From Flavobacteriaceae bacterium (lineage in GTDB: Bacteria > Bacteroidota > Bacteroidia > Flavobacteriales > Flavobacteriaceae), in NCBI GenBank assembly GCA_965224465.1, contig OZ245049.1:3090001-3122000 (forward strand): a stretch of 32,000 bases of DNA, given 5' to 3'. The notes under the pieces were generated by a model. It was not told where the DNA came from. It saw only the letters and a list, made by a program, of their open reading frames with translations, and ran no database searches. The first letter of the stretch is position 1. Every line of letters starts with the position of its first letter. A program made the position numbers and the translations under genes. This document shows positions 4,918 through 23,092 of this stretch, in pieces.

Positions 4918-5714
4918 AAAACAAATATTTAATAATATTTTTTTTGATTACATTAATAATTTCTTGTAAAGAAATAGAGAACCCAAAAATAACAACAAAT
5001 ATAAATAAGATAAAAGATACAATTAGAATCAACTGTAAAGAATGTATTATTGATCTTAAGTTTAATAATAAAAAGTTAAATAAATTAAAAGAAAAATATT
5101 CTAATGATGATTTTTATATTATAGCTGATGATGCAAACAATTATACATCTAATGTAAGAGACTTCTTAGGTCAAGAGAAAAAAGAAATTATTAAAATAAA
5201 AATGAATTCTAATAATGTTTTAAAAATTAATAATAGATTTATTATTCCCTATGAAAAAATTAATTATTGGGATTATATTTTATGTTTAAATAGTACAAAA
5301 CCAAAAATTGTCAGCCCAATTGAATTTATAGATGTTTATCAGACGTACTATATTGACAAAATCAAATCAATTAAACCTAATTGGATAGGGAGTTTTAATT
5401 TTTTTAATGACTTAGGCAAAATTGGAGATTCTGGAATTTTTATTGGATATAATATTAATATTTCAAAAGATAGTATTTTGTTTTCTGGGCAAGGTTATCA
5501 AACTAATTTTTATGATTTGTGTTACGCCAAGCAAAATAAAGATACCTTAGAATTATATTACAAAAAAACAATTGAAGGAACAGATTATAATAAAAAAGAG
5601 AAAAAAGCATTATTTAAACTATATATTAAAAACAGCAATTATTATGGTAAAAGTCCTGTAATATTTATTGAATCTATTAATAACACTCCTTTTCAATTAG
5701 AAAAAAATGATTAA
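4914..5714 (+). CDS. Lipoprotein, putative immunity protein of orphan toxin 3
   Basis: ATG at 4914 gives MKNKYLIIFFLITLIISCKE (lipobox ISC). There is an ATGA start/stop overlap with the toxin ORF. Confidence 0.6.
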   Translation: MKNKYLIIFFLITLIISCKEIENPKITTNINKIKDTIRINCKECIIDLKFNNKKLNKLKEKYSNDDFYIIADDANNYTSNVRDFLGQEKKEIIKIKMNSNNVLKINNRFIIPYEKINYWDYILCLNSTKPKIVSPIEFIDVYQTYYIDKIKSIKPNWIGSFNFFNDLGKIGDSGIFIGYNINISKDSILFSGQGYQTNFYDLCYAKQNKDTLELYYKKTIEGTDYNKKEKKALFKLYIKNSNYYGKSPVIFIESINNTPFQLEKND

Positions 5715-5717: not shown

Positions 5718-7291
5718 ACTCAAGTTTCGCACTTAGATAGATTTACGCAACCTCTTGATAGTTAAGCTTGTGGATATTCACTAGGAATCCAAAATCTTCA
5801 ATATTCGCTATTATTTTACGTGTAACCATTTCAACATCAATAGATTCAATCATCTTTTCCAAAATGTCAATCACCAAGCTGATAACTGCTAATATCCTGA
5901 TGTTTAGCTTATTCTCTATATAATCTTGTTTTAAATCTTTAAACAAGCCTCCTATAGTTTCGTAGGCTTCCATTCTATATCGAATACTGGTGAGTAAATA
6001 TTGAACCATTATAATGCTTATTTGTGCGATTTGAATATCGAAATTAGTAGACTGACATTTTCCAAGACCAAACAACTGCTTAGCTTCTTTAAAAAACACT
6101 TCTATGGACCATCTGATACTGTATATTTCAATAGCCTTTACAAATTTCAGTGTTGTATCCGTTGATATTAACGTGTGCCATTTGCCATTCTTTCCACGTT
6201 TTGAAATAAATACAGCAACCTTAAGACCATCAATTTCAGTTATGTAATGATGGTAGTAATAATTGAATTTACGGCATCGTTTTGGTTTTATTTTCTGTTT
6301 TTTGAGTTGTGACAACGTTTTTATCTTTGATCGAACTTCAATCTTACTGTTGTATTTATACATCCCAATAATATGAGTTGAACTACTAATGTTCCGTAGC
6401 TTTCTAAGTAATTTAACACTTGTAAACCAGGTGTCTATTAAGATGTAATCTATGGGGATTTTACGTTTTACAAGCCTTGAGAACATTTGAACTAGCAGGT
6501 CTGTTTTCTTTTTATTGAGTTCCTGATACCTCTTTGCTGCAATTGTTTTACTACATCTTGGAGTTTTCTTTTGAAGCCTACGTTGCTTCGCCGTTAGACC
6601 GTATTTTAATTTTGATGTTTTACTTTCACGATGCAAACTAAAGTCAACAGGGATAAATACACTTCCATTCCAATAACCAGCTACAAGTAGCTTAAAGCCT
6701 AGGTAATACGTTTTTGACACATGGTTGTATATTTTTGAAACACCTTCAATTGTCTTTCCTGTTTTAGAAAGATCAGTATCGTCAAAGATCAAGCACTTTG
6801 TAGCGTCTTGAGATGGAGTAAAGAACTCTTCTTTTAATAGATATTGCTTCACAAACTGAGCTAGAAAAACCCTCCAATTTATCTTTTGATTTGCTAGGAT
6901 TCGATAGTATGAATCTTTACCCGACTGACCTAATCCCTTGTCTTTACTACTTGTAAGTCCATGAATAGAATCAAATCCGATAATAGGTAAAATTAAAAGT
7001 GTAGAGATTAAATTACCGAATGAAATCCCCGATTTCTTACACCAACTAAACTTGTTTTTAATTTTATTGAATCCTAAAATATTTAGATGTGCTTGTAGGT
7101 ATTCTGAACTAAGCCAAATCTTATTAAATTTTCCTTTTATCTCCTGTGTTTTTGTGATATCTTCGTGTTCTAGCATGTTTTGTACTTTCTTGTTCGTACT
7201 TAAAAGTACAATAAAACCAGGGGATTACCTTGGTTTTCATGCTATTTATTTTTACTTAAACACCTGTAAATGATGGGTGCGAAACTTGAGT
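5718..7291 (-). mobile_element. Complete IS4-family insertion sequence (1574 bp)
   Basis: Perfect 15-bp terminal inverted repeats: ACTCAAGTTTCGCAC at 5718-5732 and its reverse complement GTGCGAAACTTGAGT at 7277-7291. They enclose a single DDE transposase ORF. No flanking direct repeat is seen. Confidence 0.85.
5743..7176 (-). CDS. IS4-family DDE transposase (477 aa)
   Basis: Long ORF with the IS4-type C-terminal Y-x2-R-x3-E-x6-K block (YSIRWSIEVFFKEAKQ). It is bracketed by the IRs. Confidence 0.9.
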   Translation of the reverse strand: MLEHEDITKTQEIKGKFNKIWLSSEYLQAHLNILGFNKIKNKFSWCKKSGISFGNLISTLLILPIIGFDSIHGLTSSKDKGLGQSGKDSYYRILANQKINWRVFLAQFVKQYLLKEEFFTPSQDATKCLIFDDTDLSKTGKTIEGVSKIYNHVSKTYYLGFKLLVAGYWNGSVFIPVDFSLHRESKTSKLKYGLTAKQRRLQKKTPRCSKTIAAKRYQELNKKKTDLLVQMFSRLVKRKIPIDYILIDTWFTSVKLLRKLRNISSSTHIIGMYKYNSKIEVRSKIKTLSQLKKQKIKPKRCRKFNYYYHHYITEIDGLKVAVFISKRGKNGKWHTLISTDTTLKFVKAIEIYSIRWSIEVFFKEAKQLFGLGKCQSTNFDIQIAQISIIMVQYLLTSIRYRMEAYETIGGLFKDLKQDYIENKLNIRILAVISLVIDILEKMIESIDVEMVTRKIIANIEDFGFLVNIHKLNYQEVA

Positions 7292-7555
7292 AAACTTATA
7301 TCATTGAAGGATTCTCTTGAAGATATACTTTCAAGCCATTCACTTAATATTGATGATGAAATTATTTCAACTATTAGTTCATTGTGCATTGAAATTAGAT
7401 TGATGATTAACGAGTTTCGATTTAATTCTACTCATGAAGAATTAACTGGAGAAAAAGAAGGGATTTCTGGAGCTAATCGGCTAGATAAAATTTATGATAT
7501 GATTATGGATTTACTAAGATTACTTGAGCATGAAAATGGTATTAAAAGAGAATAA
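7277..7555 (+). CDS. Hypothetical 92-codon ORF, possibly the 3' remnant of a gene cut by the IS4 insertion
   Basis: The GTG 'start' lies inside the IS4 inverted repeat and the first in-frame ATG is well downstream. An identical copy is at 17355-17633. No domain recognised. Confidence 0.3.
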   Translation: MRNLSKLISLKDSLEDILSSHSLNIDDEIISTISSLCIEIRLMINEFRFNSTHEELTGEKEGISGANRLDKIYDMIMDLLRLLEHENGIKRE

Positions 7556-7703
7556 AGCAAAGCTGCTAACAATAAATATAGGTCATTTGGCAGGTAATGC
7601 AAATTTTGAAAATGAGTACAATTAATATAATATATAGCGTTTGGATAGGTTGGAGCTTTGAAATGCCAAACGCCCCATATTCAAGCCGTTGGCAAACATT
7701 AAA

Positions 7704-8324
7704 ATGAAGACTGTACTATACATATTAATTACTCTAATTTCGACTGTCTCGTATGGCCAAATCAGTGGAAAAGATAGCGACAGAGCGCATCTGCTAATTG
7801 ATAATTTTCGAAACCATATTGATTCGACTAACCAGTTGACTAATGGAGCTAAGATTTTCTATATCAGCGACTCCTTATTTAAAGGAACGATATTGACTTT
7901 GAAAAATGGCGACAAACTTGAACTTGACTTGAGATACAAAGACAATTTTCGTGGCTATACAGAATTAGGTGTTGACTTTGAGAATTATGTACTTATAAAG
8001 AATCGTGGAGACGGGTCAGGAAACCCTGAACGACTCCGGGTAATCAACAAAAAAACAGGTGAAGACAAGTGGCTTGGAAACTATCCATTCTATCTTGACA
8101 AGGAAAATGAAATCGGTGTTTACAAATCATATACAGATTCGTTCTCACAAATTATAGTTCATGACTTCTCGACCAACAAAACAGAAATTTATCCGACTCC
8201 TGCCACTAAATGTATCTGCTGTGGTTGTTATGAAATTGTCCAATTCGACAATGATGGTTTCACAATAAAATTTGTTGACCCCGATGACAATGAGACAGAA
8301 CTGAAAATGAAAAGAAAAAAATAA
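7704..8324 (+). CDS. Secreted hypothetical protein (206 aa) with a C-terminal CICCGC cysteine cluster
   Basis: ATG at 7704 gives MKTVLYILITLISTVSYGQ (signal peptide). An identical copy is at 19639-20259, upstream of the second PAAR gene. Confidence 0.6.
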   Translation: MKTVLYILITLISTVSYGQISGKDSDRAHLLIDNFRNHIDSTNQLTNGAKIFYISDSLFKGTILTLKNGDKLELDLRYKDNFRGYTELGVDFENYVLIKNRGDGSGNPERLRVINKKTGEDKWLGNYPFYLDKENEIGVYKSYTDSFSQIIVHDFSTNKTEIYPTPATKCICCGCYEIVQFDNDGFTIKFVDPDDNETELKMKRKK

Positions 8325-8486
8325 CGAAATGCCAATAACTAAGTGTTCGTGCGATACCTAGCGCCCAGCATGAACATCCTGTTGACTGTATCGTTTCAAA
8401 AGATGATACTATGAGGTTGGCGCAATTAATTAAGAGGCTATCAACAAAGACCTTAATAAGATACTACCTGTTTTAGTGCATTTACT

Positions 8487-8516
8487 CCCACGCTCTTTTG
8501 TGGGGATAGTTTTTTA
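8487..8516 (+). terminator. Weak candidate intrinsic terminator
   Basis: CCCAC (8487-8491) / GTGGG (8500-8504) stem followed by GATAGTTTTTT. The stem is only 5 bp and lies ~165 nt after the upstream stop. Confidence 0.3.
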
Positions 8517-8726
8517 CTGTTTTTTGATACTGATTATTGTTGGTTAGTAGCGTTTAGGCATGCGCTTTCTATTACGTGGCTACGTTTATTTTTTAACAAC
8601 GCTAGAACGTAAAACAACCTATTTATATCGGTTATAAGATAAAGGTCAAATCGGTACGGTAATTAGATGAATAAAAATACAGGGAAATATAATCGGAAAA
8701 CCACTACTGCATATAACTATTTTTTG

Positions 8727-8734
8727 TACATTTG
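8727..8734 (+). promoter_or_regulatory. Candidate Bacteroidota -7 promoter element (TAnnTTTG) upstream of the PAAR gene
   Basis: TACATTTG at 8727-8734. The paralogous position 20662-20669 reads TACTTTTG, so the consensus is kept although neighbouring bases differ. No clear -33 TTTG partner. Confidence 0.25.
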
Positions 8735-8900
8735 AAGACTGCTTATACATATATACGTCTGAATAATTAAAATAACCCAATGCTACATCGTAGGTTAAAT
8801 GGATATGCCATCTTGTTTAGCACTGCTACTGTGAGAATATGGGATTATAAGTAATTTAACGCACTCAAGCGGTAGAACATTACATAAAAAACAAAAAATT

Positions 8901-9362
8901 ATGCCAGGACCAGCAGCAACAATATCACACATGCACACATGCCCTATGTATAGTGGAACAAGCCCACATACTGGTGGCCCCATTATAGGCCCGGGAGTGC
9001 CAACAGTTTTAATAGGAGGAAAACCTGCCGCAGTAATGGGGGATCAATGTACCTGTTCGGGACCACCCGATGTAATTGTAGAAGGTGTTTCTACCGTATT
9101 AATTGGCGGGAGACCTGCAGCTACTATGGGATCAAAAACAGGTCATGGAGGCGAAGTAAGCATTGGAAATCCTACCGTACTTATTGGTACAAGATGTAGT
9201 GCTCCTACCGCAATAATGCCAGTGCATAAAATACCTTTTCCTAAAATCACTCTAATTAATAGAATATTAGGGAATACAAGGCAAGCGCAAGAAAACCAAG
9301 AAAAAATAAAAGAAGAAGCTAAGAAACATGGATATCTTAGTGATTTTAATTTAAGTATCTAA
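8901..9362 (+). CDS. PAAR-domain protein with a ~55-aa C-terminal tail
   Basis: Gly/Pro-rich beta-repeat with literal PAA motifs (GGKPAAVMGD, GGRPAATMGS), conserved H/C residues (HMHTCPM, CTCSG) and repeated TVLIGG strands. GC is markedly higher than in the flanks. Confidence 0.9.
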   Translation: MPGPAATISHMHTCPMYSGTSPHTGGPIIGPGVPTVLIGGKPAAVMGDQCTCSGPPDVIVEGVSTVLIGGRPAATMGSKTGHGGEVSIGNPTVLIGTRCSAPTAIMPVHKIPFPKITLINRILGNTRQAQENQEKIKEEAKKHGYLSDFNLSI

Positions 9363-9373
9363 AATAAAAATCT

Positions 9374-12300
9374 ATGAGAGTAAGTTATCCGCTAAAAGAT
9401 ATTAGTACTGATGCCGAAGCAAAAAATTATTTGGGGAATCGTAACCTTTTTGGAAAATACCCTATTGGAGCGCATAATGCTTGGCATGGTGGTATACATT
9501 TAGAAGGTGCAAGTAGAGAAATACAATGCATTGCGCAAGGTCGTATAATTGCCTACCGCTTTGCAGAAGGGTATAAAAAAACGATAATAAACAATTCGGA
9601 TCACTTATACTCTAATGGGTTTATACTCATACAACACGATTATAAAAGTAAAGAAAAACAAAAAATGACCTTTTATAGTTTGTATCATCATTTAATGCCT
9701 AAAGATGAGATAACTACTAATAAGTTTAGTTTACCTGATTTTGTAAGTAAAAAAAAACATGTAGTAACTAGAGGTTTAGGAATTCTTAATCTAGGTTTAA
9801 GAGGGAGGAAGCTTAAAGATAATGTAATAAACTGGAAAGATAAAGATACTATAGTTGTTGTAATACCTAAAGGAGAGCTTGTACAAGCTATGCTAGACGA
9901 AAATAGCAAGGAAATAAGAAAAGGAAACTGGTTAAAAGTAAGCTATACAGATAAAAACAATAAAAAATATGAAAATATTTACTTAAGTACAAAATATGGT
10001 ACAAAATATAAAGTAAAGCAAATAGGTACTACCACTACTTACGAAATAATCACTACCGAAGATCCAGATAATAGTATATTAGGTGCAATAGTAAGAACAG
10101 AAGCAATTAATAGTTCTGAAATTGTAAAAGTCATTGAGAACGGTTTCCCTATAAAAATAGATGACTCTTATAAAAACAAAGGTTGGATAAAATTAGCAGA
10201 CAATACTGGCTATATTTTAGAAAGCAGTTTAGATAAAAAAAAAGTACTTGCTAAAAACGTTAAGTTAAATACAATTACAGCTTGTGATATACCAATAAAA
10301 GCAGGTGTAACCATTGGTTATACAGGTAGCCTAGGTTTTAAAGGGTACAAAGGATATAAAGCAACCCACTTAGAAGTATTTACAACAGATGATGTTTTTG
10401 AGTTTTTAAGTAATGAAAAAAAAGATGGAAAAGAAGAACAATATTTTACAAATATTATAGCAGGCACAACATTAAAAACAAGCCTATTTTACAAAGTAGA
10501 TATTAAAGCAAATACCCCTATAAAAGTACTTAAAATTGAAGGAGATTATGCACAAATAAAAGTAACATCTATTACTGCAACCTTAGTTAGAGATACCGAT
10601 ATTAATGATAACGTAAAACCATTTAATAGCAATAAACTTTATACTATCAAAAATCTTACTACGGTTAATAAAGCATTTAATGGTCTTGCAACTAAAGATG
10701 CCACATTCAATACAAAACAAGTAAAAGCACCAAGAAATTGGAGAACAAATTTAAACAGAACTGTTACCTTTTACCCAAATGGCTATGGTAAAGTGTTTTG
10801 GATAGAAAAAACATTTATTTCCAAAATAACAGAAAAAACCAAAAAAAAAGCAGGTATATTTGTCTCAATTACTCCTGACTATTTTTTAACAGAAGAACAA
10901 AAATACGATACAGTTGAAAGAGAAGCCAAAACAGGAGAAAAAACTACATTATATGTAGATGTATGTAAGGCATATATCGAAGTCCCTTTTAGAACCGATG
11001 TAGAAGAAGTAACTGTAGAAAAAGAAAAAGTAGTTGACTTACGTAAATTTAAAAAAGCAAAAGACGATAAAAAAGACCTTTGGTATAAAGTAGTATTAGA
11101 TGATACAACTAGTAGCCAATGTGTCGCAGTAAAAGGCTGGGTAAAAGAAAAGGATCTTGACAAATTTAGCGCTTACGATTGGCAAAAATTTGGTTTTAAA
11201 GATCTAGACGCAGGTAATGAATACATATACTCTGTAAAAGACTTATGTAAGGCAGAAGACAGTGCCGCTTTTGTAACCGAAATTTGGGATAAAACAATAG
11301 ATACAGATGGCAATAAAGTATTAGATATACTAGAGCTTATTAGAGCGTTTAGTAAACCAGAAATAGCACAAAAACTATCTCGTTTGGTATGTAAGCACAA
11401 AAATGAATGGTCTTATACTATGGACGAAATAAAACCAGAAGTAAAAGAACTCTATGATTTTGGTATACAATTAGAAGAAGTTACAGCCGAAAAACAAAAA
11501 CTAGAAACCGAAAGGGATGATAGTTTAGCCAAAATGGAAACCAAAATAGAAAATTTAATGTGGTGGGATGAGGCAAGTAAAAAAACCTACACAGCACCCA
11601 TAAAAGAAGAAGATAAAACAAAAACGAGTAGCACCAAAAGACCTTCTATGTTGCCAGAAGGTACAGTGGTAGAAGAAATACCACAAAAAGATGTTGTACC
11701 TTTAGACAATAAAACAACAGCAGTTAAACCAGATGCTAAACCAACGAAAGATAGTATACCAACGACAAGTACAACCGCTGCTCCAGCACCAGAAACTAAA
11801 GTAGAAGAAAAAGAAGTGCCACCAAAACGTATGTTTCCAAGTACCAATATAGTACATCACTTTCATCCAATTGCTTGGGTGGAGCAGATGAGGAGGGTTT
11901 TTGGAGATAATGGTATTTGTGTTTGTGAAGCTAGAGTTAGGGCTTTTCTGAGACTTATTAAAGAATTTGAAGGAGTTCCAGGCGAAAAAGGATATACTAC
12001 ATTGTTTAATCATAAAAGTTTTTCAGATATGTCTACACATCCAGAAAAACCTATTCTTTGGTATAAAAACAAAAAAACAGGAAAAAATGTGTATAGTACT
12101 GCTGCAGGTGCATATCAAATAATGAAAGAAACTTGGTGGGATTATAATGGAGATGTAGTAAAAGACCATAAAAAAGTAGGTAGAAACGAGAATAGAAACT
12201 TCGTTAAAAAATATGGAATAAAGGATTTTTCAGCTAAATCTCAAGATAAATTTTGTATAGCATTACTAATACATGGATATAAAGCAAAAAATCAATTGAA

Positions 12301-12982
12301 TTATTTATTAAATGGTTTTGTAACCAGAGCGATAGAAGAATGTGCATCACACACTTGGGCTAGTTTTACTCCTGGTAGATATCCAAAACAAGGGCCAACA
12401 AAGGGACTTACAAATAAGAAAAAAATAAAAGACGCTATACATAACGCTAGAGTAAAGCAATGGGAAGCCTATGATAAATTTCTTACTGAAGAGCTAGCTG
12501 GACAATCTGATTTACATTTAGAACCTGGATTTTTAAAAAAGTTTGGAATTAAAGAGCCTGAACCAAAGGAGCTAATAGAAAACAAAAAAGAAGGGCTTGA
12601 TTTAAATAAAGCAATTGAAAGATTAAATAAAAGAGCTGGTGACATGACTACTTCAGTATGGAAATGTGCTAAATATGTTAGATGGGCTTTAGAAGCTGGG
12701 GGAATGAAAACATGGGGTGCTGCTAAAATAGATCAACGCCCAAATTCGGCAAAAGATTATGGCCCGTTTTTATTAAACAAAGGTTTTAAAGAAGTTCCTA
12801 AGGGTAATTATCAAAAAGGAGATATATCAGTTATTCAAAATTTAAGTGCGGCAAAACCTCATGGGCACATAGCTATGTGGAATGGTGAAAATTGGGTATC
12901 AGATTTTGTTCAAAAAACTCTTTACCCAGGAGATGGGTATAGAAATGCACAACCAAATTATAAAATTTACAGATGGGAATAA
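9374..12982 (+). CDS. Large polymorphic effector: split M23/LytM-like N-domain, SH3-like inserts, P/T/K linker, HHFHPIAWVEQM junction, GH104 (lambda R-like) muramidase, Tae4/NlpC-P60-like amidase
   Basis: Starts 11 nt after the PAAR stop. M23-like blocks: WHGGIHLEG, GRIIAYRF, GFILIQH, FYSLYHHL, then ~190 aa later IKAGVTIGYTGSLG...ATHLEVF. The C-terminal region is colinear with phage lambda R: RVRAFLRLIKEFEG / FSDMSTHPEK / STAAGAYQIM..TWWDY / KDFSAKSQD / HTWASF. The last ~135 aa carry KCAKYVRWAL (Cys) ... KGDISVI ... HGHIAMWNGENWVSDF (His), as in Tae4-type amidases. Confidence 0.85.
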   Translation: MRVSYPLKDISTDAEAKNYLGNRNLFGKYPIGAHNAWHGGIHLEGASREIQCIAQGRIIAYRFAEGYKKTIINNSDHLYSNGFILIQHDYKSKEKQKMTFYSLYHHLMPKDEITTNKFSLPDFVSKKKHVVTRGLGILNLGLRGRKLKDNVINWKDKDTIVVVIPKGELVQAMLDENSKEIRKGNWLKVSYTDKNNKKYENIYLSTKYGTKYKVKQIGTTTTYEIITTEDPDNSILGAIVRTEAINSSEIVKVIENGFPIKIDDSYKNKGWIKLADNTGYILESSLDKKKVLAKNVKLNTITACDIPIKAGVTIGYTGSLGFKGYKGYKATHLEVFTTDDVFEFLSNEKKDGKEEQYFTNIIAGTTLKTSLFYKVDIKANTPIKVLKIEGDYAQIKVTSITATLVRDTDINDNVKPFNSNKLYTIKNLTTVNKAFNGLATKDATFNTKQVKAPRNWRTNLNRTVTFYPNGYGKVFWIEKTFISKITEKTKKKAGIFVSITPDYFLTEEQKYDTVEREAKTGEKTTLYVDVCKAYIEVPFRTDVEEVTVEKEKVVDLRKFKKAKDDKKDLWYKVVLDDTTSSQCVAVKGWVKEKDLDKFSAYDWQKFGFKDLDAGNEYIYSVKDLCKAEDSAAFVTEIWDKTIDTDGNKVLDILELIRAFSKPEIAQKLSRLVCKHKNEWSYTMDEIKPEVKELYDFGIQLEEVTAEKQKLETERDDSLAKMETKIENLMWWDEASKKTYTAPIKEEDKTKTSSTKRPSMLPEGTVVEEIPQKDVVPLDNKTTAVKPDAKPTKDSIPTTSTTAAPAPETKVEEKEVPPKRMFPSTNIVHHFHPIAWVEQMRRVFGDNGICVCEARVRAFLRLIKEFEGVPGEKGYTTLFNHKSFSDMSTHPEKPILWYKNKKTGKNVYSTAAGAYQIMKETWWDYNGDVVKDHKKVGRNENRNFVKKYGIKDFSAKSQDKFCIALLIHGYKAKNQLNYLLNGFVTRAIEECASHTWASFTPGRYPKQGPTKGLTNKKKIKDAIHNARVKQWEAYDKFLTEELAGQSDLHLEPGFLKKFGIKEPEPKELIENKKEGLDLNKAIERLNKRAGDMTTSVWKCAKYVRWALEAGGMKTWGAAKIDQRPNSAKDYGPFLLNKGFKEVPKGNYQKGDISVIQNLSAAKPHGHIAMWNGENWVSDFVQKTLYPGDGYRNAQPNYKIYRWE
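11575..11891 (+). repeat. 317-bp homology tract shared with 3399-3715
   Basis: See the partner feature at 3399-3715. Confidence 0.9.
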
Positions 12983-13842
12983 ATAAAATATTTAAACTTT
13001 TAGTTGTATTTGCTTTTTTTAGTTCTTTCTTATCATGCAAAGAAAGTCCTAAAAAAAACAATGATGTTGTAGTAAATAATACATCGTCATCACTTAATGT
13101 AGGAAAAAAGAATAATCCCCAAACAAAAATAGAGTCTAAAGATTTTATTCTTGAATTTTACACAAAATATATTAAATATTTAGAAGATCCTTTAAATGAA
13201 GAATCAATAGATTATGAATTTTATTTAACGGAAGATTTGATTGATGAAATTGGAAAAACAGAAGGTTATGATTACATTATAAAAGCCCAAGATTCAACTG
13301 TAGAATGGTTGAAATCTTTAAAAGTAGAGGATACTGAGAAAAATAACGTTTACAGTATTACTCGTGAAAAAGGTTATTATGATAGTGATGATAATACAAT
13401 TTATGCCACTGTTATAGAACTAAAAAATGAAAAATTAAAAATATCAAAGTTAAGTAGTACTTTAATAGATCAACCTATTTCTACTCCAGTAGAAAACGAA
13501 GATCAGAAAGGTAAGTTTACTTATTACTCTTTTGATTATAAAATAAATCCTGGAGATCGCATTAATGAGACAAGTTATATTATAGAATATTTAGAAGAAG
13601 AACATATTGTTTTTTCAATGATGGGATATGATGGAGAGTTTGACTATAAATGTAGACAGGTAAGGACAAAAGAAGGTGTTTCACTTTATTATATAGAAGC
13701 TACTGATGATGATGAATATACAGGAAATAAAAGTAAACCACTCGCTAGAATATATAAAAAAGGTGAAGATTTTTATGCTAAAAGTTCACTTATAGAAGAT
13801 GGTAAAGAAATTAAGCTAAAAGAAGTTGAAAGTAGATACTAA
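12973..13842 (+). CDS. Lipoprotein, putative immunity protein for the full-length effector
   Basis: MGINKIFKLLVVFAFFSSFLSCKES (lipobox LSC). It overlaps the effector stop by 10 nt, and its position is analogous to the three orphan-linked lipoproteins. Confidence 0.65.
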   Translation: MGINKIFKLLVVFAFFSSFLSCKESPKKNNDVVVNNTSSSLNVGKKNNPQTKIESKDFILEFYTKYIKYLEDPLNEESIDYEFYLTEDLIDEIGKTEGYDYIIKAQDSTVEWLKSLKVEDTEKNNVYSITREKGYYDSDDNTIYATVIELKNEKLKISKLSSTLIDQPISTPVENEDQKGKFTYYSFDYKINPGDRINETSYIIEYLEEEHIVFSMMGYDGEFDYKCRQVRTKEGVSLYYIEATDDDEYTGNKSKPLARIYKKGEDFYAKSSLIEDGKEIKLKEVESRY

Positions 13843-13963: not shown

Positions 13964-14272
13964 ATGAGAAAAAACGAAGAAAAACGAGCCTATATGACAG
14001 CTGTTGTTTCCGATTGGAAGTTGAGTGATTTAACCTTGGAAGATTATTGTAAAAGTCATAAAATTACACTTTGTAAATTTAGGTACTGGAATAAGAAATT
14101 GACCTCCAAAAAAGCCAGTGGATTTTCAAAGGTTGAACTTATTGATGCTCCTATTGAAAACAGCAGAAATTCTATTTTAGATAGTTTTAAAATCGAGTAT
14201 CCAACAGGTGTAAATTTGGTCATTAACAAAGAGATTACACTTGTCGATTTACAAAATTTAATTCATTTGTAA
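13964..14272 (+). CDS. tnpA: IS66 accessory protein TnpA (Orf1)
   Basis: Small first ORF of the IS66 triplet, 102 aa, directly upstream of the tnpB-like ORF. Confidence 0.75.
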   Translation: MRKNEEKRAYMTAVVSDWKLSDLTLEDYCKSHKITLCKFRYWNKKLTSKKASGFSKVELIDAPIENSRNSILDSFKIEYPTGVNLVINKEITLVDLQNLIHL

Positions 14273-14273
14273 T

Positions 14274-14615
14274 ATGCTAAATCTTTCAAGTGAACTTGAT
14301 TTTCATCTGTACCTAGAACCCACAGATATGCGTAAAGGATTTAATGGTTTGTCAGGTGTTATCCGTAATAATTTAGAAGAGGATCCTAGTAATGGAGCTG
14401 TTTTTATCTTCATAAATAAACCTCGAAACAAAATAAAACTATTGCATTGGCAAGCAGGTGGATTTGTACTGTATTATAAACGATTGGAACGAGGTACTTT
14501 TGAACTCCCGGTGTATGATAATCTGAAAGGAAGTATACAAATGAAATACAGCCAAATGGTGATGCTTCTTGATGGACTGTCTATCAAAAACATCCAACAA
14601 AGGAAACGTTATTAA
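14274..14615 (+). CDS. tnpB: IS66 Orf2 protein TnpB
   Basis: DMRKGFNGLSGVI...GAVFIFINKPRNKIKLLHWQAGGFVLYYKRLERGTFELP matches the conserved IS66 Orf2 pattern. Confidence 0.9.
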   Translation: MLNLSSELDFHLYLEPTDMRKGFNGLSGVIRNNLEEDPSNGAVFIFINKPRNKIKLLHWQAGGFVLYYKRLERGTFELPVYDNLKGSIQMKYSQMVMLLDGLSIKNIQQRKRY

Positions 14616-14683
14616 TGTCTTTTTACAGGTAAAAAACCTAATAAAACCAGGCTGTTCATGTATATTTTTCGTATATTTAATGT

Positions 14684-16327
14684 ATGGAAAAAGACTTAGA
14701 ACAGCTATCAAAAAAAGCACTTATAGCCCTATTACAGGAGGCTAATTCTAAGTCAGATTTACTTATCAAAAAGACAAGTTCTCTTAGTGCAAAAAATGAG
14801 TTACTTACTATAAAGACAAAAGACGTTACTTTACAAAAGGCTATCCTAGAAGCTCAATATAAAGAATTAGAGACAAAATACGGATATGGACAATTTCAAT
14901 TAGAGCAATTACGTCGTATGATTTTTGGGACAAAACGTGAGCGTTTTATAATGGCTAATAACCCTTTTCAAATGCAACTCCCTTTCGAAGTTTTAAAAGA
15001 GATGCCCCAGGAAGAAGAAGCTCCTGTAAACATTACATATCAACGTAAAAAGACTAAAAAAAGAACGATTGGAAGTTTAAATCTCCCCAGTCATTTACCT
15101 GTTGAAATTATTAATTTAGAGCCTAAAGAGACTATAGAGAACCGAATAAAAATAGGTGAAGAAATTACAGATAAATTAGAACTTGTACCCACAAAGCTAT
15201 ACATAAAACGATATGTCAGACCAAAATACGCCTTAAAAAAGAAAGTACAAGACACATTGATTGACAATGGAAACCCTTTAGGTATTAAGACCGTTATTAT
15301 GGCTGATTTACCAAGTTTTGCTATTGAAAAATCTGTAGCATCAAACAGCCTGCTAGCACAGCTATTGATTGATAAATTCTTAGATCACTTACCGTATTAT
15401 CGACAGATAGAACGTTTTAAACGAGAAGGAATCTCTATAAGTTCATCTACAATAAATGGATGGCAAAACAGCTTAGGACACTTACTTAAGCCGCTGTATC
15501 AGGCTATGAAAAACACGGTGCTGTCACAAGGATATGTACAGGCCGATGAATCAACTATTCCGGTGCTAGACAAACAGAAAAAAGGAAAAACTCATACTGG
15601 ATATCATTGGGTGTACTATTCACCCATACAAAAAATGGTATTGTTTGATTATCGTCACTCTAGATCTAAACATGGACCTAGAGAAATGCTTAAAAACTTT
15701 AAAGGGTATTTACAAACAGATGGCTACGCTGTATATGATGAATTTGCACTTAAAAAAGATGTCACTTTAGTAGGGTGTATGGCACATGCACGTCGTTATT
15801 TTGAGAAAGCACTAGACTATGACAAAGTAAAAGCGAGTCATGCGATGGTACTCATTCAACAATTATATGCCATTGAACGACATTGTAAAAACCAGGAATT
15901 TACTCCTGAGCAACGGCATGCTTATCGCCTAGATAAAGCACAACCAATAATGGATACATTTATAAAATGGTTGATCCATAATACCCAAGGAAGCTTACCT
16001 AAAAGTTCCTTAGGAAAAGCAATCACTTATACATTAAAACGATGGGACTACTTAAAAGCCTACCTGTATGACGGTACTTTAGAACTAGATAATAACCTGG
16101 TAGAAGGATCTATCAGAACATTAGCTATTGGACGTAAAAATTATTTATTTGCAGGTAGCCATGATGCTGCAAAAAATGCTGCCATGTTCTACTCCTTTTT
16201 TGGGACTTGTAAAAAACACCAAGTAAACCCCTATAAATGGATGAAAAAAGTACTGGATATAATCCCTGATTACAATGCTCGAAAGCTAAATGAGCTATTT
16301 CCACAAAATTTAAACCTCGATCAATAA
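14684..16327 (+). CDS. tnpC: IS66-family transposase TnpC
   Basis: 547 aa with an N-terminal coiled coil, DHLPYYRQIERFKREGI, and a DDE-type core (HWVYYSP..., LQTDGYAVYD, GCMAHARRYF). Confidence 0.9.
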   Translation: MEKDLEQLSKKALIALLQEANSKSDLLIKKTSSLSAKNELLTIKTKDVTLQKAILEAQYKELETKYGYGQFQLEQLRRMIFGTKRERFIMANNPFQMQLPFEVLKEMPQEEEAPVNITYQRKKTKKRTIGSLNLPSHLPVEIINLEPKETIENRIKIGEEITDKLELVPTKLYIKRYVRPKYALKKKVQDTLIDNGNPLGIKTVIMADLPSFAIEKSVASNSLLAQLLIDKFLDHLPYYRQIERFKREGISISSSTINGWQNSLGHLLKPLYQAMKNTVLSQGYVQADESTIPVLDKQKKGKTHTGYHWVYYSPIQKMVLFDYRHSRSKHGPREMLKNFKGYLQTDGYAVYDEFALKKDVTLVGCMAHARRYFEKALDYDKVKASHAMVLIQQLYAIERHCKNQEFTPEQRHAYRLDKAQPIMDTFIKWLIHNTQGSLPKSSLGKAITYTLKRWDYLKAYLYDGTLELDNNLVEGSIRTLAIGRKNYLFAGSHDAAKNAAMFYSFFGTCKKHQVNPYKWMKKVLDIIPDYNARKLNELFPQNLNLDQ

Positions 16328-16345: not shown

Positions 16346-16383
16346 TATTTTTAATTCCTATACGTACTTCGTCGGACGGATAC

Positions 16384-17254
16384 GTTGTGACAACGTTTTT
16401 ATCTTTGATCGAACTTCAATCTTACTGTTGTATTTATACATCCCAATAATATGAGTTGAACTACTAATGTTCCGTAGCTTTCTAAGTAATTTAACACTTG
16501 TAAACCAGGTGTCTATTAAGATGTAATCTATGGGGATTTTACGTTTTACAAGCCTTGAGAACATTTGAACTAGCAGGTCTGTTTTCTTTTTATTGAGTTC
16601 CTGATACCTCTTTGCTGCAATTGTTTTACTACATCTTGGAGTTTTCTTTTGAAGCCTACGTTGCTTCGCCGTTAGACCGTATTTTAATTTTGATGTTTTA
16701 CTTTCACGATGCAAACTAAAGTCAACAGGGATAAATACACTTCCATTCCAATAACCAGCTACAAGTAGCTTAAAGCCTAGGTAATACGTTTTTGACACAT
16801 GGTTGTATATTTTTGAAACACCTTCAATTGTCTTTCCTGTTTTAGAAAGATCAGTATCGTCAAAGATCAAGCACTTTGTAGCGTCTTGAGATGGAGTAAA
16901 GAACTCTTCTTTTAATAGATATTGCTTCACAAACTGAGCTAGAAAAACCCTCCAATTTATCTTTTGATTTGCTAGGATTCGATAGTATGAATCTTTACCC
17001 GACTGACCTAATCCCTTGTCTTTACTACTTGTAAGTCCATGAATAGAATCAAATCCGATAATAGGTAAAATTAAAAGTGTAGAGATTAAATTACCGAATG
17101 AAATCCCCGATTTCTTACACCAACTAAACTTGTTTTTAATTTTATTGAATCCTAAAATATTTAGATGTGCTTGTAGGTATTCTGAACTAAGCCAAATCTT
17201 ATTAAATTTTCCTTTTATCTCCTGTGTTTTTGTGATATCTTCGTGTTCTAGCAT
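16384..17254 (-). pseudogene. IS4-family transposase lacking its C-terminal ~190 codons
   Basis: The translation is identical to the first ~290 aa of the 477-aa copy. The track ORF then reads through into IS66 terminal sequence (..LSQRIRPTKYV). Confidence 0.85.
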
Positions 17255-17369
17255 GTTTTGTACTTTCTTGTTCGTACTTAAAAGTACAATAAAACCAGGG
17301 GATTACCTTGGTTTTCATGCTATTTATTTTTACTTAAACACCTGTAAATGATGGGTGCGAAACTTGAGT
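16384..17369 (-). mobile_element. Truncated second IS4-family copy (transposase-start-proximal 986 bp only)
   Basis: Identical by eye to 6306-7291 (offset 10078). It starts abruptly at the IS66 right end and retains the IR at 17355-17369. Confidence 0.85.
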
Positions 17370-17646: not shown

Positions 17647-19503
17647 ATCGAGTAGACGGGTGACAACTGAATAGTTGCCACTGCGCCTCTCACACCACCG
17701 TACGTACGGGTCTCGTATACGGCGGTTCAAAAAATTGAAGTCTGCGTATTATTAATGTAATCTATCAAAGGTTTATACCCTTTTCGTACAAGTCTAGATT
17801 TGGTAATGGTAGTCTTTAAAATTGGACTTTGGGCTACTGCCCATCCTCCCATTCTGGTTCTACTCCAAGCGTATGCTTGTCCATTCTCTATTCCTAATCT
17901 GATTAGGTTTTTACGTTTTCGTTCGAGTTTTTTTCCAATCGTGCCAAATACAATATCGCAACCGATTTCTTATCCACTCATCTAGCTTTTTAACTTTTGC
18001 ATAGATGTTGGTTAAACGGTAATTATTCATCCAGCCTCGGCAGACTTGATTAAGCCGTTCTAAACGTTCCGACAATGACATTGGTTTGGTTTTCTTGGTA
18101 ATACTCTTTAGGTTACGCTTAAACTTTGCCCAACTTTTCTTTGCTACTACTAGTATATATTGTCCTTTTACTCCCTTTTTGTAGACTGGCACAAAGCCAT
18201 GTCCTAGTAACTCAAAGTTTACGGGTCTACGAATGCCACTTTTGGCTTTATTTATAGGTAGTTTTAATTTGTCTTTTAAGAAGACAAACAACGTATTCCC
18301 TATTTGTTTCGCCTCACGTTTGGTCTTTGCGTAAATGCTAAAATCATCTGCGTAGCGGACGTACCGTAAACCCATTCTTTTCATTTCTTTATCCAAGACG
18401 TCTAACATTATGTTAGATAGTAAGGGACTAATTGGGCTTCCTTGCGGGATTCCTTTTCTACGCTTTTGAAGTTTCCCATTTATTAAAATAGGAACTCTAA
18501 GCCATTTTCGGATTAAACGCATGGTTGTTGGACATTTTACCCTGTGGTAAATAAGTTGTAGTAGGATACAATGGTCCACTTCATCAAAGAACCCTTTAAG
18601 GTCAATATCTACAATATCTTGGTAACCATTATTGATATACTGTTGAGCTTGTAGTACTGCTTTTTGAATGTTCTTTTGTGGTCTAAACCCAAAACTAAGT
18701 GGCTCAAAATCAAATTCGAACTGAACCATTAATTGTTGGCTTACCGCTTGCTGTAGCCATCTATCTACTACTGTTGGGATTCCTAAAAGTCTGGTTTTAC
18801 CCTTGCCTTTTGGAATGCTTACTCCTAAGATTGAGTTTGGAACATAGCTATTCTTACGGATCGTTGTTAGTATGTCTGAACGGTTTTCAACTATATAAGT
18901 TGAAAGTTCCGTTACTTTCATACCATCAACTCCGCTAGCTCCTTTATTTCGCTTCACTTGACGTGCTGCTTTAAAAAGGTTGGTAGCTTCTAGTACTTTG
19001 TCAATCATAGGTTAAATAATTCGGGTACTCCTGTTGGTTTAAAACTAGGCTAGCTAGGCATCCTAATTGAATTTCAACGTAATTTAATGTTCTGTCCTTC
19101 CCTATTTGTGAGACCATCTGAGGTCTTTCCTCAACTCGTTTCCCATAGGTACTATGACGTCTGCTGACTTCTCCATAGAACCAACTCCTGGCTTTGGAGA
19201 CCTCCCCAGGTAATGACATCTTCTTTCACTCAATCACTGCCGTATCTACATAACTACCCTTTTAGTATTCTTTTGGGCGTTGCAATGATGTGTTTACTTA
19301 CCCAAGTAATTATACCTCTGTATACGGTTTCTGTTCGTCAGTACCGAGCTTTGTAGTCTCGCTTCCTTCAGATAAAACCTCACGGTTTTCACCCTTGCGA
19401 CTTACTAATGTTTCAGAACGTTACTCCTGCACATAAGGGACTTGCACCCTCTAGATTAATTAACTACCTTTCCGTAGTTAAAAGATGCCCATGCTGGGCA
19501 CAC
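17647..19503 (-). mobile_element. Group II intron (1857 nt) with intron-encoded reverse transcriptase
   Basis: It is absent from the otherwise identical copy at 7568/7569-7570, which fixes the boundaries. On the minus strand it begins GTGTGCCCAGCATGGG (GUGYG) and ends ...CTACTCGAT (AY). A domain V-like helix CCGCCGTATACGAGACCCGTACGTACGGTGG lies near the 3' end. The RT ORF is inside. Confidence 0.85.
17911..19008 (-). CDS. Group II intron-encoded reverse transcriptase/maturase (reading frame broken near the C-terminus)
   Basis: RT blocks include GIPQGSPISPLLSNIML and the YADDFSIY active-site motif. The maturase X-like motif is RGWMNNY. After the stop at 17911-17913, the typical C-terminus (KRKNLIRLGIENGQAYAWSRTRMGGW...) continues in another frame down to 17727. 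Confidence 0.85.
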   Translation of the reverse strand: MIDKVLEATNLFKAARQVKRNKGASGVDGMKVTELSTYIVENRSDILTTIRKNSYVPNSILGVSIPKGKGKTRLLGIPTVVDRWLQQAVSQQLMVQFEFDFEPLSFGFRPQKNIQKAVLQAQQYINNGYQDIVDIDLKGFFDEVDHCILLQLIYHRVKCPTTMRLIRKWLRVPILINGKLQKRRKGIPQGSPISPLLSNIMLDVLDKEMKRMGLRYVRYADDFSIYAKTKREAKQIGNTLFVFLKDKLKLPINKAKSGIRRPVNFELLGHGFVPVYKKGVKGQYILVVAKKSWAKFKRNLKSITKKTKPMSLSERLERLNQVCRGWMNNYRLTNIYAKVKKLDEWIRNRLRYCIWHDWKKTRTKT

Positions 19504-20836: not shown

Positions 20837-21298
20837 ATGCCAGGACCAGCAGCAACAATATCGCACATGCACACATGCCCTATGTATAGTGGAACAAGCC
20901 CACATACTGGTGGCCCCATTATAGGCCCGGGAGTGCCAACAGTTTTAATAGGAGGAAAACCTGCCGCAGTAATGGGGGATCAATGTACCTGTTCGGGACC
21001 ACCCGATGTAATTGTAGAAGGTGTTTCTACCGTATTAATTGGCGGGAGACCCGCAGCTACTATGGGATCAAAAACAGGTCATGGAGGCGAAGTAAGCATT
21101 GGAAATCCTACCGTACTTATTGGTACAAGATGTAGTGCTCCTACCGCAATAATGCCTTTGAGTCAAATACCTTTTCCTAAAATCACTCTAATTAATAGAA
21201 TATTAGGGAATACAAGGCAAGCGCAAGAAAACCAAGAAAAAATAAAAGAAGAAGCTAAGAAAAATGGATATCTAAGCCTTGTTGATTTTAGTATTTAA
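20837..21298 (+). CDS. PAAR-domain protein, second paralog
   Basis: 153 aa, identical to the 8901-9362 product except for VHK->LSQ in the tail and the last ~11 residues (NGYLSLVDFSI vs HGYLSDFNLSI). Confidence 0.9.
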   Translation: MPGPAATISHMHTCPMYSGTSPHTGGPIIGPGVPTVLIGGKPAAVMGDQCTCSGPPDVIVEGVSTVLIGGRPAATMGSKTGHGGEVSIGNPTVLIGTRCSAPTAIMPLSQIPFPKITLINRILGNTRQAQENQEKIKEEAKKNGYLSLVDFSI

Positions 21299-21309: not shown

Positions 21310-21971
21310 ATGAAAGTAGAGTACCCATTATTACCTTCTGATAAAAAAGATGCTGAAGAATTTACTAAAGAAGAACTTATTTCTAAATATTATGGGCAAA
21401 AAAATCGCTTTGGTTTTTTTCCTATAGGACGTTTAAACTCTTGGCATGGAGGGATTCATATAGAAAGTTCAAGTAGTAAAGTTAGAGCTGTTGCAGATGG
21501 AAGAATAATAGCTTATAGAATTACAGAGGATCTTTTGACTGAAAAAGAAAGGGATAAAAAGTACTCTAACAGTTTTATTCTAATACAGCACAATTTTGAA
21601 ACTCCTAAAAAACAAAAGTTGCGTTTTTATAGTTTGTATATGCATTTACAAACTAAAAATCAATTAGAAAGTGGGTCTGGAAAACATATCCCAAATTTAT
21701 ATGCTAAATATATTGCAAAAGTAACAGGAAAACAGCAACGAGGTGGACTTAATGCAAGATCTGGTTCTGAAACATATGTTAGCAGTAGTAAAAAATGGGG
21801 GAAAATAAAAATGGTTATTTATAAAGACGAAATTGTTAGTTATGATATATCCCCTATAACTGGAGAAAAAGGGGAAAAGATAATGGGAGCTTCTTTTGCA
21901 GATGACCATTGGATTAATGACCATGATTATAAATATATCCCAATTATATATAAAGGACATAGCGATTTAGC
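21310..21971 (+). pseudogene. N-terminal ~220 codons of a second, diverged M23-like effector, ending at the IS30 insertion
   Basis: Colinear with the N-terminus of the 1202-aa effector (NSWHGGIHIE, GRIIAYRI, SFILIQH, FYSLYMHL). The last codons of the track ORF (AEFKSQTQLLVK) are IS30 terminal sequence. Confidence 0.8.
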
Positions 21972-23092
21972 TGAATTCAAGTCACAAACGCAACTTTTAG
22001 TTAAATAATAATTGTTCCATTACAAATATAGGGTTTTGATATTTATGTCTCTTCCTAGGTCTGTTATTTAATTTTGTTTCTACCTCTTTGATTCTTTGAT
22101 CTGTTAGGTTTGTAAAGTCACTTCCTTTGGCAAAATATTGTCTAATCAAACCATTTAAATTTTCGTTAGATCCTCTTTCCCAAGAGTGATATGGATGCGC
22201 AAAAAAGTAATCAATACATAAATTTTCTGCAACCTGCTCATGGCCTGCAAATTCTTTTCCATTATCAGCTGTTATAGTATGTAGATAAGGCTTCCAGTCT
22301 TCTAATATTTCATTGATAGCTTTAGTGACAACAACTGCTTCTTTAGAGCTTACTTTTTTCATTTTAAGCATTCCAGAAGCTCTATCATTTACGGTAAGTA
22401 TGGCTTGATTATGGTTTTTACCTATGATTAAATCGACCTCTAAATCTCCAAATCGATTTCTTTGTTCAACAACTTCAGGGCGTTGTTCTATACTAATACG
22501 ATTCTTTATAACCCCTCTAGAATCCTTTGATGAGCCACGTTTTCTATATCTCCTTCCCTGTCTGCGAAGGTGTGTATGTAAATCACCATCATTCCTCTTG
22601 TCTTCCCTAATATGCTGATATATACGCTCAATAGACACCGTTTCTTTACCTTGTTTTTTTAGGACACCAACTACTTGCTCAGGACTATAATCGTCTCGCA
22701 ATAACAACTCTATTGCTTGTTGAATATCTTCTGTAAAGCGTTTTCTTTTAGGCTTTTCTTTATGACGTTTAGCATACTTTTTTTGGGCTAATTCATGCTT
22801 GTAAACTCCATTTCTTTTGTCTGAATTACGCTTAATCTCTTTGCTAATAACAGACTTGTCTTTTCCTATAGCAGCTGCTATCTCAACCTGTTTATAACCT
22901 TGTTTTAACATGCAACAAATTGTGTATCTTTGCGCTTGGGTGATGTGTTTCATACAACTTCTTTTTTCGAGATTTGAGACCGTAAGATACATATCCATCA
23001 AGACAAGAAAGGTAGGTTTTCCTACTTTTCTGTTTTGAAAATATAACCATCATAGAATCAAATCGAAAAGTTGCGTTTATTAGTTGAATTTA
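21972..23092 (-). mobile_element. Complete IS30-family insertion sequence (1121 bp)
   Basis: Imperfect ~27-bp terminal IRs: TGAATTCAAGTCACAAACGCAACTTTT at the left end and, at the right end (reverse complement), TTAAATTCAACTAATAAACGCAACTTTT. AGC is present on both flanks (21969-21971 and 23093-23095). Confidence 0.85.
21997..22953 (-). CDS. IS30-family DDE transposase
   Basis: N-terminal HTH (MKHITQAQRYTICCMLKQGYKQVEIAAAIG...SVISKEIKRN) and an integrase-type core (LTVNDRASG, ITADNGKEF, ERGSNENLNGLIRQY). The alternative upstream ATG at 23001 is less likely. Confidence 0.9.
   Translation of the reverse strand: MKHITQAQRYTICCMLKQGYKQVEIAAAIGKDKSVISKEIKRNSDKRNGVYKHELAQKKYAKRHKEKPKRKRFTEDIQQAIELLLRDDYSPEQVVGVLKKQGKETVSIERIYQHIREDKRNDGDLHTHLRRQGRRYRKRGSSKDSRGVIKNRISIEQRPEVVEQRNRFGDLEVDLIIGKNHNQAILTVNDRASGMLKMKKVSSKEAVVVTKAINEILEDWKPYLHTITADNGKEFAGHEQVAENLCIDYFFAHPYHSWERGSNENLNGLIRQYFAKGSDFTNLTDQRIKEVETKLNNRPRKRHKYQNPIFVMEQLLFN

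Follow-up and report, generated by a model that had tools for sequence, protein, structure and literature searches.

The question raised by this locus is what the N-terminal region of a large effector protein does: whether it is a third enzyme acting on the cell wall, or a head through which the two toxin domains behind it are delivered. The locus lies in a stretch of 32,000 nucleotides (nt) from a Flavobacteriaceae bacterium (contig OZ245049.1, positions 3,090,001 to 3,122,000 of the forward strand), called the window below, and coordinates are counted from its first letter. An earlier note, made from the letters alone, had seen in nucleotides 9461-10408 (effector residues 30-345) the ordered motifs of an M23 peptidase, and had offered these two functions as alternatives. 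Our analysis makes it likely that residues 1 to about 850 form a loading domain of the WHIX type serving a type VI secretion system (T6SS), built on an M23-like core and docked on the neighboring PAAR spike protein, with PAAR replacing VgrG as the donor of the bound tail. The effector is divided as follows.

9374..12982, + strand: effector, 1202 amino acids, with a WHIX/TseP-N chassis followed by a lambda-lysozyme-like domain and a Tae4-like amidase
9455..9712, + strand: first M23-like half, corresponding to WHIX region 1, residues 28-113 (WH38GGIH42, DGRIIAYR, FILIQH88, FYSLYHH106L); predicted local distance difference test (pLDDT) score mostly >90
9713..10273, + strand: insert of beta-rich SH3-like modules, residues 114-300, from Pfam SH3_3 and Foldseek
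10274..10408, + strand: second M23-like half, residues 301-345 (IKAGxTIGYTG ... H332-L-E334-V-F), from alignment register and conservation
10409..11923, + strand: remaining conserved chassis, residues 346-850, from BLASTP against Aeromonas dhakensis P0036 and EF-hand profile matches
11300-11335, + strand: EF-hand-like loop, D643-E654, DTDGNKVLDILE
11852-11890, + strand: junction motif V827-HHFHPIAWVEQM839, which recurs at the start of orphan toxin cassettes
11984..12382, + strand: lambda-lysozyme-like toxin domain (lytic transglycosylase type), residues 871-1003 (PDB 1am7 and 3d3d, E 2.4e-5)
12608..12976, + strand: Tae4-like peptidoglycan amidase toxin domain, residues 1079-1201 (PDB 4hz9, E 1.5e-23)

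A probable diverged M23-like fold split by an insert

The motif blocks that drew attention to the region, WH38GGIH42LE, GRIIAYRF, GFILIQH88, FYSLYHH106L, IKAGVTIGYTGSLG and ATH332LE334VF, are all present in the open reading frame (ORF), at W37-H38-G-G-I-H42-L-E44, G56-R-I-I-A-Y-R, F83-I-L-I-Q-H88, F100-Y-S-L-Y-H-H106-L, I308-K-A-G...G318 and H332-L-E334-V-F. A truncated paralog beginning at 21310 retains WHGGIH, as had been stated. Judged from the family alignment described below, the blocks are not a product of chance, being near-invariant among the members.

That the blocks follow the order of M23 peptidases is supported by three kinds of sequence comparison. The paralog gives a faint match to Pfam Peptidase_M23 (E 0.05, 14.2 bits against a gathering cut-off of 28.7); the main effector ORF gives no match to this family. 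The relatives P0087 and P0097 are compact, with 14 and 17 residues, respectively, between the two halves, and both match the Peptidase_M23 profile over positions 3-91 of its 96. The scores of P0087 (32.6 bits) and of another member, P0064 (30.3 bits), exceed the cut-off, and P0097 lies just below it. In the family as a whole the insert follows the 'YxHL' strand of the M23-like core and is 14-264 amino acids long, with a median of 177. When the full-length family profile was compared with the PDB, EF-hand and toxin-domain matches dominated, and the profile was therefore trimmed. The insert was cut from 39 family members to give a profile (A3) that was searched against all PDB sequences. The best match was 8s3m, a 'Lytic endopeptidase' (E 1.5e-5), covering both halves and carrying HPGVD and HLH in the aligned segment. 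Lysostaphin (E 1.6e-3), LytM (3nyy), TagE and 3slu were also matched, and all other non-spurious matches were M23 proteins. Aligned by hhalign with the bona fide M23 toxin domain of P0025, the same profile gave E 2e-4 and 46% probability.

An AlphaFold2 (AF2) model of residues 1-560 has a mean pLDDT of 85.6. Foldseek comparison of this model with the PDB returned SH3-like domains (probability 0.87-0.99, E>0.4), noise and a weak match to phi29 gp13. The insert of ~190 residues was held to defeat local structural alignment, and the insert-deleted core was therefore modelled, using an alignment (A4) of the window core with full-length homologs. The core model has a pLDDT of 88.7 and a predicted TM score (pTM) of 0.83. 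Its only high-probability match in the PDB is phi29 gp13 (probability 1.00, E 0.07, TMq 0.45), the C-terminal domain of which we take to be M23-type. Against BFVD the top eight matches all have probability 1.00, with a best E of 8.8e-4 and TMq of 0.42-0.54; they comprise Arthrobacter phage Lysin A proteins, a SpoIIQ-like protein, a 'Peptidase M23', a baseplate hub protein and two entries without a name. The named neighbors at probability 1.00 are all M23/LytM-type or phage cell-puncturing proteins, and SpoIIQ-like proteins are found among both the fold and the sequence matches. The fold neighbors are consistent with the M23-like fold that had been proposed, with scores that are modest (TM about 0.5).

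Could the resemblance be a chance match of motifs within a beta-rich, SH3-containing region, at the N-terminus of a protein with an unrelated fold? The failure of the window protein to match Pfam M23, and of the 560-residue model to find a significant M23 match with Foldseek, are consistent with this. It is hard to reconcile with the Pfam score of P0087, which passes the gathering threshold over a near-complete profile with P0097 spanning the same positions, or with the match of the insert-deleted profile to a solved M23-type enzyme across both halves. The hhalign comparison with a bona fide M23 toxin domain and the identity of the named fold neighbors argue against it too. We regard chance resemblance as largely refuted, and its probability as very small. 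The fold reading is supported at the level of sequence profiles and moderately at the level of the fold; for the core (residues ~28-113 and ~301-345) we strongly favor M23 ancestry, as a diverged, split beta fold of M23/LytM type.

The insert had been described as containing SH3b-like modules, and this is supported by a Pfam SH3_3 match at residues 237-286 (nt 10082-10231; E 5.7e-6), which at 26.9 bits lies just below the cut-off of 27, together with the Foldseek matches to SH3-like domains. Beyond the second half, chassis residues 346-850 comprise more beta modules, the EF-hand-like loop, an HxSEW helix region, a low-complexity linker and the junction motif. Several homologs of the effector bear Pfam EF-hand matches, and EF-hand proteins in the PDB were matched by the family profile at E about 1e-5.

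Register and conservation of the active-site positions

LytM-type enzymes bind zinc through the His and Asp of HxxxD together with the second His of HxH; catalysis falls to the His of 'YxHL' and to the first His in HxH. Conservation of the corresponding positions was counted in an alignment of 74 family sequences (73 for H332 and E334). H38 and Y104 are present in all 74 and H88 in 73, with H42 and H106 in 71 each; H332 is found in 69/73 and E334 in 70/73. W37 is kept in 69/74 members and is otherwise F. The three members that lack His at position 42 have Asn there. The family therefore has HxxxH instead of HxxxD, and the Asp-to-His change reported from the single sequence is confirmed by the alignment.

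The second unusual ligand had been misread. H332 had been taken as the first His of HxH and E334 as a Glu in place of the second. In both of our alignments, of the insert-deleted profile with 8s3m and of P0087 with lysostaphin, H332 itself lies on the second His, E334 falls on the E or Q that follows in 'HLHFE/Q', and the first His corresponds to position 330. On these alignments we reject the earlier register. At position 330 the residues found are M, Q, A, L, T and F, and His occurs there in none of the 74 sequences. Since H332 aligns with the His that is a zinc ligand and position 330 is never His, the missing residue is the first, catalytic His.

On this register H38 would be the His of HxxxD, H106 the catalytic His of 'YxHL' and H332 the second His of HxH. 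Counting H42 in place of the Asp, the domain thus appears to keep four of the five positions of the M23 active site and to have lost the first His of HxH. The family would have a putative His/His/His site (H38, H42 and H332) plus H106, lacking one catalytic His.

A few members have lost individual putative ligands. P0007 and P0011 (Tenacibaculum and Aquimarina) have H332Q with E334D in a domain that is otherwise intact. Acinetobacter-type members P0057, P0064 and P0073 have H42N, reading 'FHGGIN', with the domain kept, and in P0023 and P0025 the domain is kept with H106 lost ('YAACA' and 'YGNCA'). Such proteins are natural variants with which a role in loading might be separated from one that depends on metal.

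Relationship to the WHIX domain and TseP

A word-indexed search with the N-terminal 369 residues initially found six relatives, and a profile made from the six found 97 proteins. These include Aeromonas 'pesticin C-terminus-like muramidase' proteins of 835 amino acids, Burkholderia GH19 proteins of ~870 amino acids, proteins of Pseudomonas and many of Flavobacteriia; the 835-residue Aeromonas proteins are linked to the N-domain at a profile E of about 1e-28. An exhaustive hidden Markov model search of 1.84 billion representatives gave 1,610 clusters with E<=1e-3, of which 152 had E<=1e-30. BLASTP of the window effector against P0036 of A. dhakensis gave colinear matches at residues 1-120 (E 3e-20), 306-339 (E 1e-3) and 583-679 (E 1e-10), and a weak one at the 'HFHP' junction.

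These relatives lead to two published descriptions. WHIX is a bipartite T6SS-specific domain, named for its WHxxxH motif and usually N-terminal, that is fused almost only to peptidoglycan-targeting toxins, lambda-lysozyme-like ones included (Fridman et al., PLoS Biol 2025, PMC12135965). This domain on its own is sufficient for secretion by the T6SS, and it binds VgrG at the C-terminal tail; in VgrG4 the last 14 residues, ending ...KVSFSGR, are required, and an AlphaFold model places them in a deep WHIX cavity (PMC12135965). TseP is cited as a WHIX protein in the same paper. TseP-N (residues 1-603) restores T6SS assembly and binds VgrG2, and is in addition reported to be a Zn2+-dependent peptidoglycan amidase (Wang et al., eLife 2025, PMC11893102). 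These authors superposed TseP-N on PDB 3SLU, an M23 peptidase domain protein, named His and Glu residues as the Zn site, and mutated H19, H23 and others. The H339A mutant lost amidase activity and still complemented T6SS function, and other mutants failed to complement (PMC11893102). The text of neither paper names an M23 fold for WHIX: 'M23' occurs 0 times in PMC11893102, and in PMC12135965 it denotes fused toxin domains only. The accessible portions of the text and supplements of PMC12135965 contain no Flavobacteria or Bacteroidota names.

Pfam and NCBIfam hold no model of the WHIX domain. The window protein has WHxxxH in its first conserved region, a bipartite layout in which region 1 (residues ~28-113) and region 2 (from ~301 on) flank a variable segment, homology to the studied proteins, peptidoglycan-targeting toxin domains and, next to it, a candidate immunity gene whose product has a signal peptide. 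From these features there is little doubt that its N-terminus belongs to the WHIX/TseP-N domain of T6SS effectors. From species, length and architecture, we infer that the 835-residue A. dhakensis protein is the TseP cited as containing WHIX.

The window domain is therefore not new as a domain, having been described twice, and the statement in the earlier note that no M23-like domain was known to it as a trafficking module has been superseded by these papers of 2025. It fails because both of the proposed functions already have published support in proteobacterial homologs, loading in PMC12135965 and amidase activity in PMC11893102. Of the two proposals, that of a PAAR-docking head fits the comparative evidence best.

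A tailed PAAR protein beside the effector

The effector ORF begins 12 nt after the end of a PAAR gene, and the arrangement occurs twice in the window.

8901..9362, + strand: PAAR spike protein, 153 amino acids (Pfam PAAR_motif, E 4.7e-21)
9192-9359, + strand: C-terminal extension of this PAAR, ~55 residues, terminus ...YLSDFNLSI
20837..21298, + strand: second PAAR copy, tail ...YLSLVDFSI, from sequence comparison with the first copy
21310..22008, + strand: truncated paralog of the effector, 232 amino acids, with WHIX region 1 of a different subtype, ended by an IS30-like element
21997..23001, - strand: IS30-like transposase ORF, truncating the second effector after 232 codons

In a scan of one genome per species, the family is found within Bacteroidota in Aquimarina, Cellulophaga, Tamlana, Tenacibaculum, Olleya, Saccharicrinis, Mangrovibacterium, Cytophagales and Saprospiraceae, and within Proteobacteria in Pseudomonas, Aeromonas and Photobacterium; the closest of the species representatives, at 62% identity, is a metagenome-assembled genome (MAG) from Flavobacteriaceae. 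We compared 80 related loci, 40 from Bacteroidota and 40 others. In 38 of the 40 Bacteroidota loci, a homolog of the window PAAR lies directly upstream of the effector and ends ~15 nt from its start. In the other 40, tblastn found no PAAR homolog adjoining the effector, the single match (in the Bacteroidetes MAG locus L069) being short and distant.

The tail of the PAAR extension resembles that of the published VgrG partner. It ends [FLIVM]-S-x in 31 of 32 PAARs (for example ...DFNLSI, ...VDFSI and ...FSFSM), against a background of ~10% of all ORFs of >=100 amino acids in the 80 loci, spike genes counted in. VgrG proteins, assigned by Pfam, that are encoded directly upstream of subclass-I effectors in Proteobacteria end ...LNFSG, ...IRFSG or ...YLFSE. 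In the Photobacterium loci L079 and L080 (4525-5988) the gene directly upstream instead encodes a 487-residue Tox-PAAR-like protein ending ...FLDVYSD, which indicates that PAAR-type carriers of WHIX are not confined to Bacteroidota.

The tail also varies together with the domain beside it. For 29 PAAR-WHIX pairs, identity of the WHIX N-region correlates with that of the final nine residues of PAAR (r 0.61, Mantel p about 2e-4), and the partial correlation controlling for the PAAR core is likewise 0.61; WHIX identity shows no such relation to that of the PAAR core (r -0.02). The two PAAR copies of the window are identical for residues 1-107 and differ only at 108-110, 143 and 148-151, and the WHIX domains beside them are only about 42% identical.

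An alternative is that WHIX loads onto VgrG as in Proteobacteria, the adjacency of PAAR reflecting operon organization only. The published interaction partners are indeed VgrG proteins, and the order VgrG-PAAR-WHIX is found in at least 20 Bacteroidota loci, with the VgrG gene just upstream of PAAR. However, the two Bacteroidota VgrG C-termini that were read (L011, from Cellulophaga baltica, and L035) end ...VKIN or ...VKLN and have no F-S-x tail, which is carried here by the PAAR extension. Moreover, it is the tail and not the PAAR core that co-varies with WHIX, and both modules in the window have PAAR with no adjacent VgrG. We consider loading on VgrG improbable. We somewhat favor docking of the PAAR tail into the WHIX domain, and PAAR would then be the tail donor in place of VgrG in Bacteroidota. 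This PAAR-tail branch is a modest extension that is not found in the WHIX and TseP papers.

Loading or catalysis

In the mechanism that we propose, the M23-derived WHIX module would cap the PAAR tail and so load the effector on the VgrG-PAAR spike, on which the whole protein would ride in a T6SS of Bacteroidota. In the periplasm of the prey the lambda-lysozyme-like and Tae4-like domains would degrade peptidoglycan, and the lipoprotein encoded downstream would protect the producer.

Alternatively, the M23-like module may add a third cell-wall hydrolase activity to the protein, that of a Zn-dependent amidase or endopeptidase using a His/His/His (plus Glu) metal site, with loading as a secondary or shared function. 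The near-invariance of H38, H42, H88, H106, H332 and E334 in 74 diverse members is unlike that of degenerate LytM domains and is consistent with such an activity. TseP-N freed peptides from peptidoglycan, was inhibited by ethylenediaminetetraacetic acid (EDTA) and restored by Zn2+, and its His and Glu mutants were inactive (PMC11893102); the almost exclusive fusion of WHIX to peptidoglycan-targeting toxins (PMC12135965) would also fit. Against this, the first His of HxH is missing in every member, and otherwise intact members have lost ligands (H332Q/E334D in P0007 and P0011, H42N in the Acinetobacter type). WHIX alone was not toxic in the periplasm of Escherichia coli (PMC12135965), and that amidase-dead TseP H339A supports T6SS function where other mutants do not points to a structural role. 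Finally, there is one candidate immunity gene for what would be three activities. We judge a third enzyme to be possible and less likely than not to be the explanation. The near-invariant His-rich site might hold a metal for structure or for peptide binding, or might serve catalysis.

Several points weigh against a PAAR-docked loading domain on an M23-like core. The Foldseek search with the 560-residue model found no better than SH3 domains, noise and weak phi29 gp13, and no PDB match of the core model reaches E<=1e-3 (TM about 0.45-0.54), so that the fold evidence is modest. The TseP residues H19, H23, H109, H339, H359 and E539 cannot be placed by any single offset on the 835-residue A. dhakensis sequence (the protein in the paper has 845 residues). 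The 32-kb window contains no T6SS core genes, and both modules lie amid insertion sequence (IS) elements. Because the tail codons adjoin the effector start, co-variation of tail and WHIX could stem from genetic linkage and not from physical contact, so that docking of the PAAR tail is something we infer. Lastly, with TseP-N reported as an active amidase that depends on Zn, a purely structural role is not established.

More speculatively, the role of tail donor may have moved from VgrG to a tailed PAAR in the T6SS(iii) of Bacteroidota, the sequence ...hydrophobic-x-F-S-x-COOH, with an invariant Ser at -2, being read by the former M23 groove and its His-rich metal site. We put this forward tentatively and consider it less likely than not. 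If true, a peptidase active site has been turned into a specific receptor for a C-terminal peptide, and the pairing of tail and groove decides which effector is matched to which spike.

Placing the window protein in the WHIX/TseP class has wider consequences. A large set of marine Bacteroidota proteins that are publicly labelled 'SH3 domain-containing protein' or 'hypothetical protein' joins the class, which is extended to a second phylum and a second type of T6SS. A split, diverged M23 core with a His-rich site links two views that seem to conflict, of a loading domain and of a Zn-dependent amidase. The common F-S-x tail, on VgrG in Proteobacteria and on PAAR in Bacteroidota, provides a simple loading rule that can be tested, and a handle for engineering the delivery of cargo. 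Current understanding is not overturned by this.

Toxin cassettes, duplications and mobile elements

The Tae4-like domain is homologous to a solved Tae4, and the Cys of 'CAKYVR' and the His of 'PHGHIAMW' are identical to the residues of PDB 4hz9 with which they align. The effector is followed by a candidate immunity gene, and further toxin cassettes without a chassis lie near the start of the window.

12973..13842, + strand: candidate immunity lipoprotein, 289 amino acids, with a signal peptide, a Cys lipobox and a weak DUF3828 match
~430-1090: orphan toxin cassette 1, CHAP/Amidase_5, with a lipoprotein-like ORF after it at 1041-1769
1978-2691: orphan toxin cassette 2, domain of unknown type, with a lipoprotein-like ORF after it at 2660-3358
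3370-4917: orphan toxin cassette 3, SLT-like plus more, with a lipoprotein-like ORF after it at 4890-5714

Homologs of the immunity candidate come after homologous Tae4 modules in loci L031 and L035, and the L035 homolog matches DUF3828 (E 1.8e-4). Each orphan cassette opens with the junction motif ...N[VI][YH]HFHPIA[FW]VEQM..., as found at effector residues 827-839, and nucleotides 3399-3715 are 97.5% identical to 11575-11891. The cassettes look like a store of exchangeable toxin and immunity modules, with the junction motif as the point of recombination. In L035 (Aquimarina algicola, 10691-12600) the lysozyme-like and Tae4 tandem (68% identity) and an immunity homolog form a separate downstream cassette, a tandem for which L031 and L016 are listed too. 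In L035 the WHIX effector in front of this cassette is a different one, with a bona fide M23 peptidase (Pfam E 3.4e-8) as its own toxin, from which it follows that toxin modules are shuffled between WHIX chassis across genera.

The PAAR genes lie in a duplicated module made up of an IS end, a 92-residue ORF (orf92), a 211-residue lipoprotein and PAAR. Nucleotides 6306-7569 and 16384-17647 are 100% identical, and 7569-9382 and 19504-21318 are 98.2% identical, with identity collapsing at the start of the effector gene. In the second copy a group II intron of ~1.86 kb lies exactly at the join, with a reverse transcriptase/maturase ORF at 17911..19008 on the minus strand. The two ORFs upstream of PAAR, at 7277-7555 (92 amino acids) and 7689-8324 (211 amino acids, signal peptide), occupy the place of VgrG in related loci and are copied at 17355-17633 and 19624-20259; neither matches a Pfam family, and the 80 related loci contain no homolog of either. 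IS elements are dense near the modules (5743-7176, 13964-16327, 16358-17254 and 21997-23001), and include a DDE_5 transposase with a truncated copy and a complete IS66-type unit (TnpB plus transposase) directly after the immunity gene. Nucleotides 2-168 of the window resemble an IS30 end (74%).

Comparison with known systems

The window protein shares with the WHIX proteins of Fridman et al. two conserved regions, the first of which carries the WHxxxH motif, around a variable segment, the N-terminal position of subclass I, peptidoglycan-targeting C-termini, a downstream candidate immunity protein with a signal peptide (DUF3828/Tai3-like), and adjacency to a spike component whose C-terminal tail ends in a motif of the F-S-x type. 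It differs in that WHIX was described for Proteobacteria with VgrG as partner, whereas the neighbor here is a tailed PAAR. Its two toxin domains lie in tandem at the C-terminal side; in the arrangement of Fridman et al. there is one on each side of WHIX.

Compared with TseP of A. dhakensis, the window protein is homologous and colinear over the N-terminal ~850 residues and also ends in a lysozyme-type toxin. It has an extra Tae4 domain and a different insert, and the carrier of TseP is VgrG2. For TseP-N amidase activity has been claimed from experiments; in the window protein such an activity is putative.

With the M23 peptidases (LytM, lysostaphin and the phi29 gp13 C-domain; PF01551) the WHIX family has in common the conserved strands, whose order and spacing agree when the insert is left out, and also the His residues of HxxxD and YxHL, the second His in HxH and the Glu that follows it. 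Unlike these, the family has His for the Asp of HxxxD, lacks the first His of HxH and is split by an insert of 14-264 residues; the window protein falls below the Pfam threshold, and the documented role is spike loading. The degenerate LytM binding modules of EnvC, NlpD and SpoIIQ use an M23 fold for contacts between proteins and not for catalysis, as is proposed here for the WHIX module. These, however, have lost their own metal ligands, whereas the WHIX family retains a near-invariant His-rich site.

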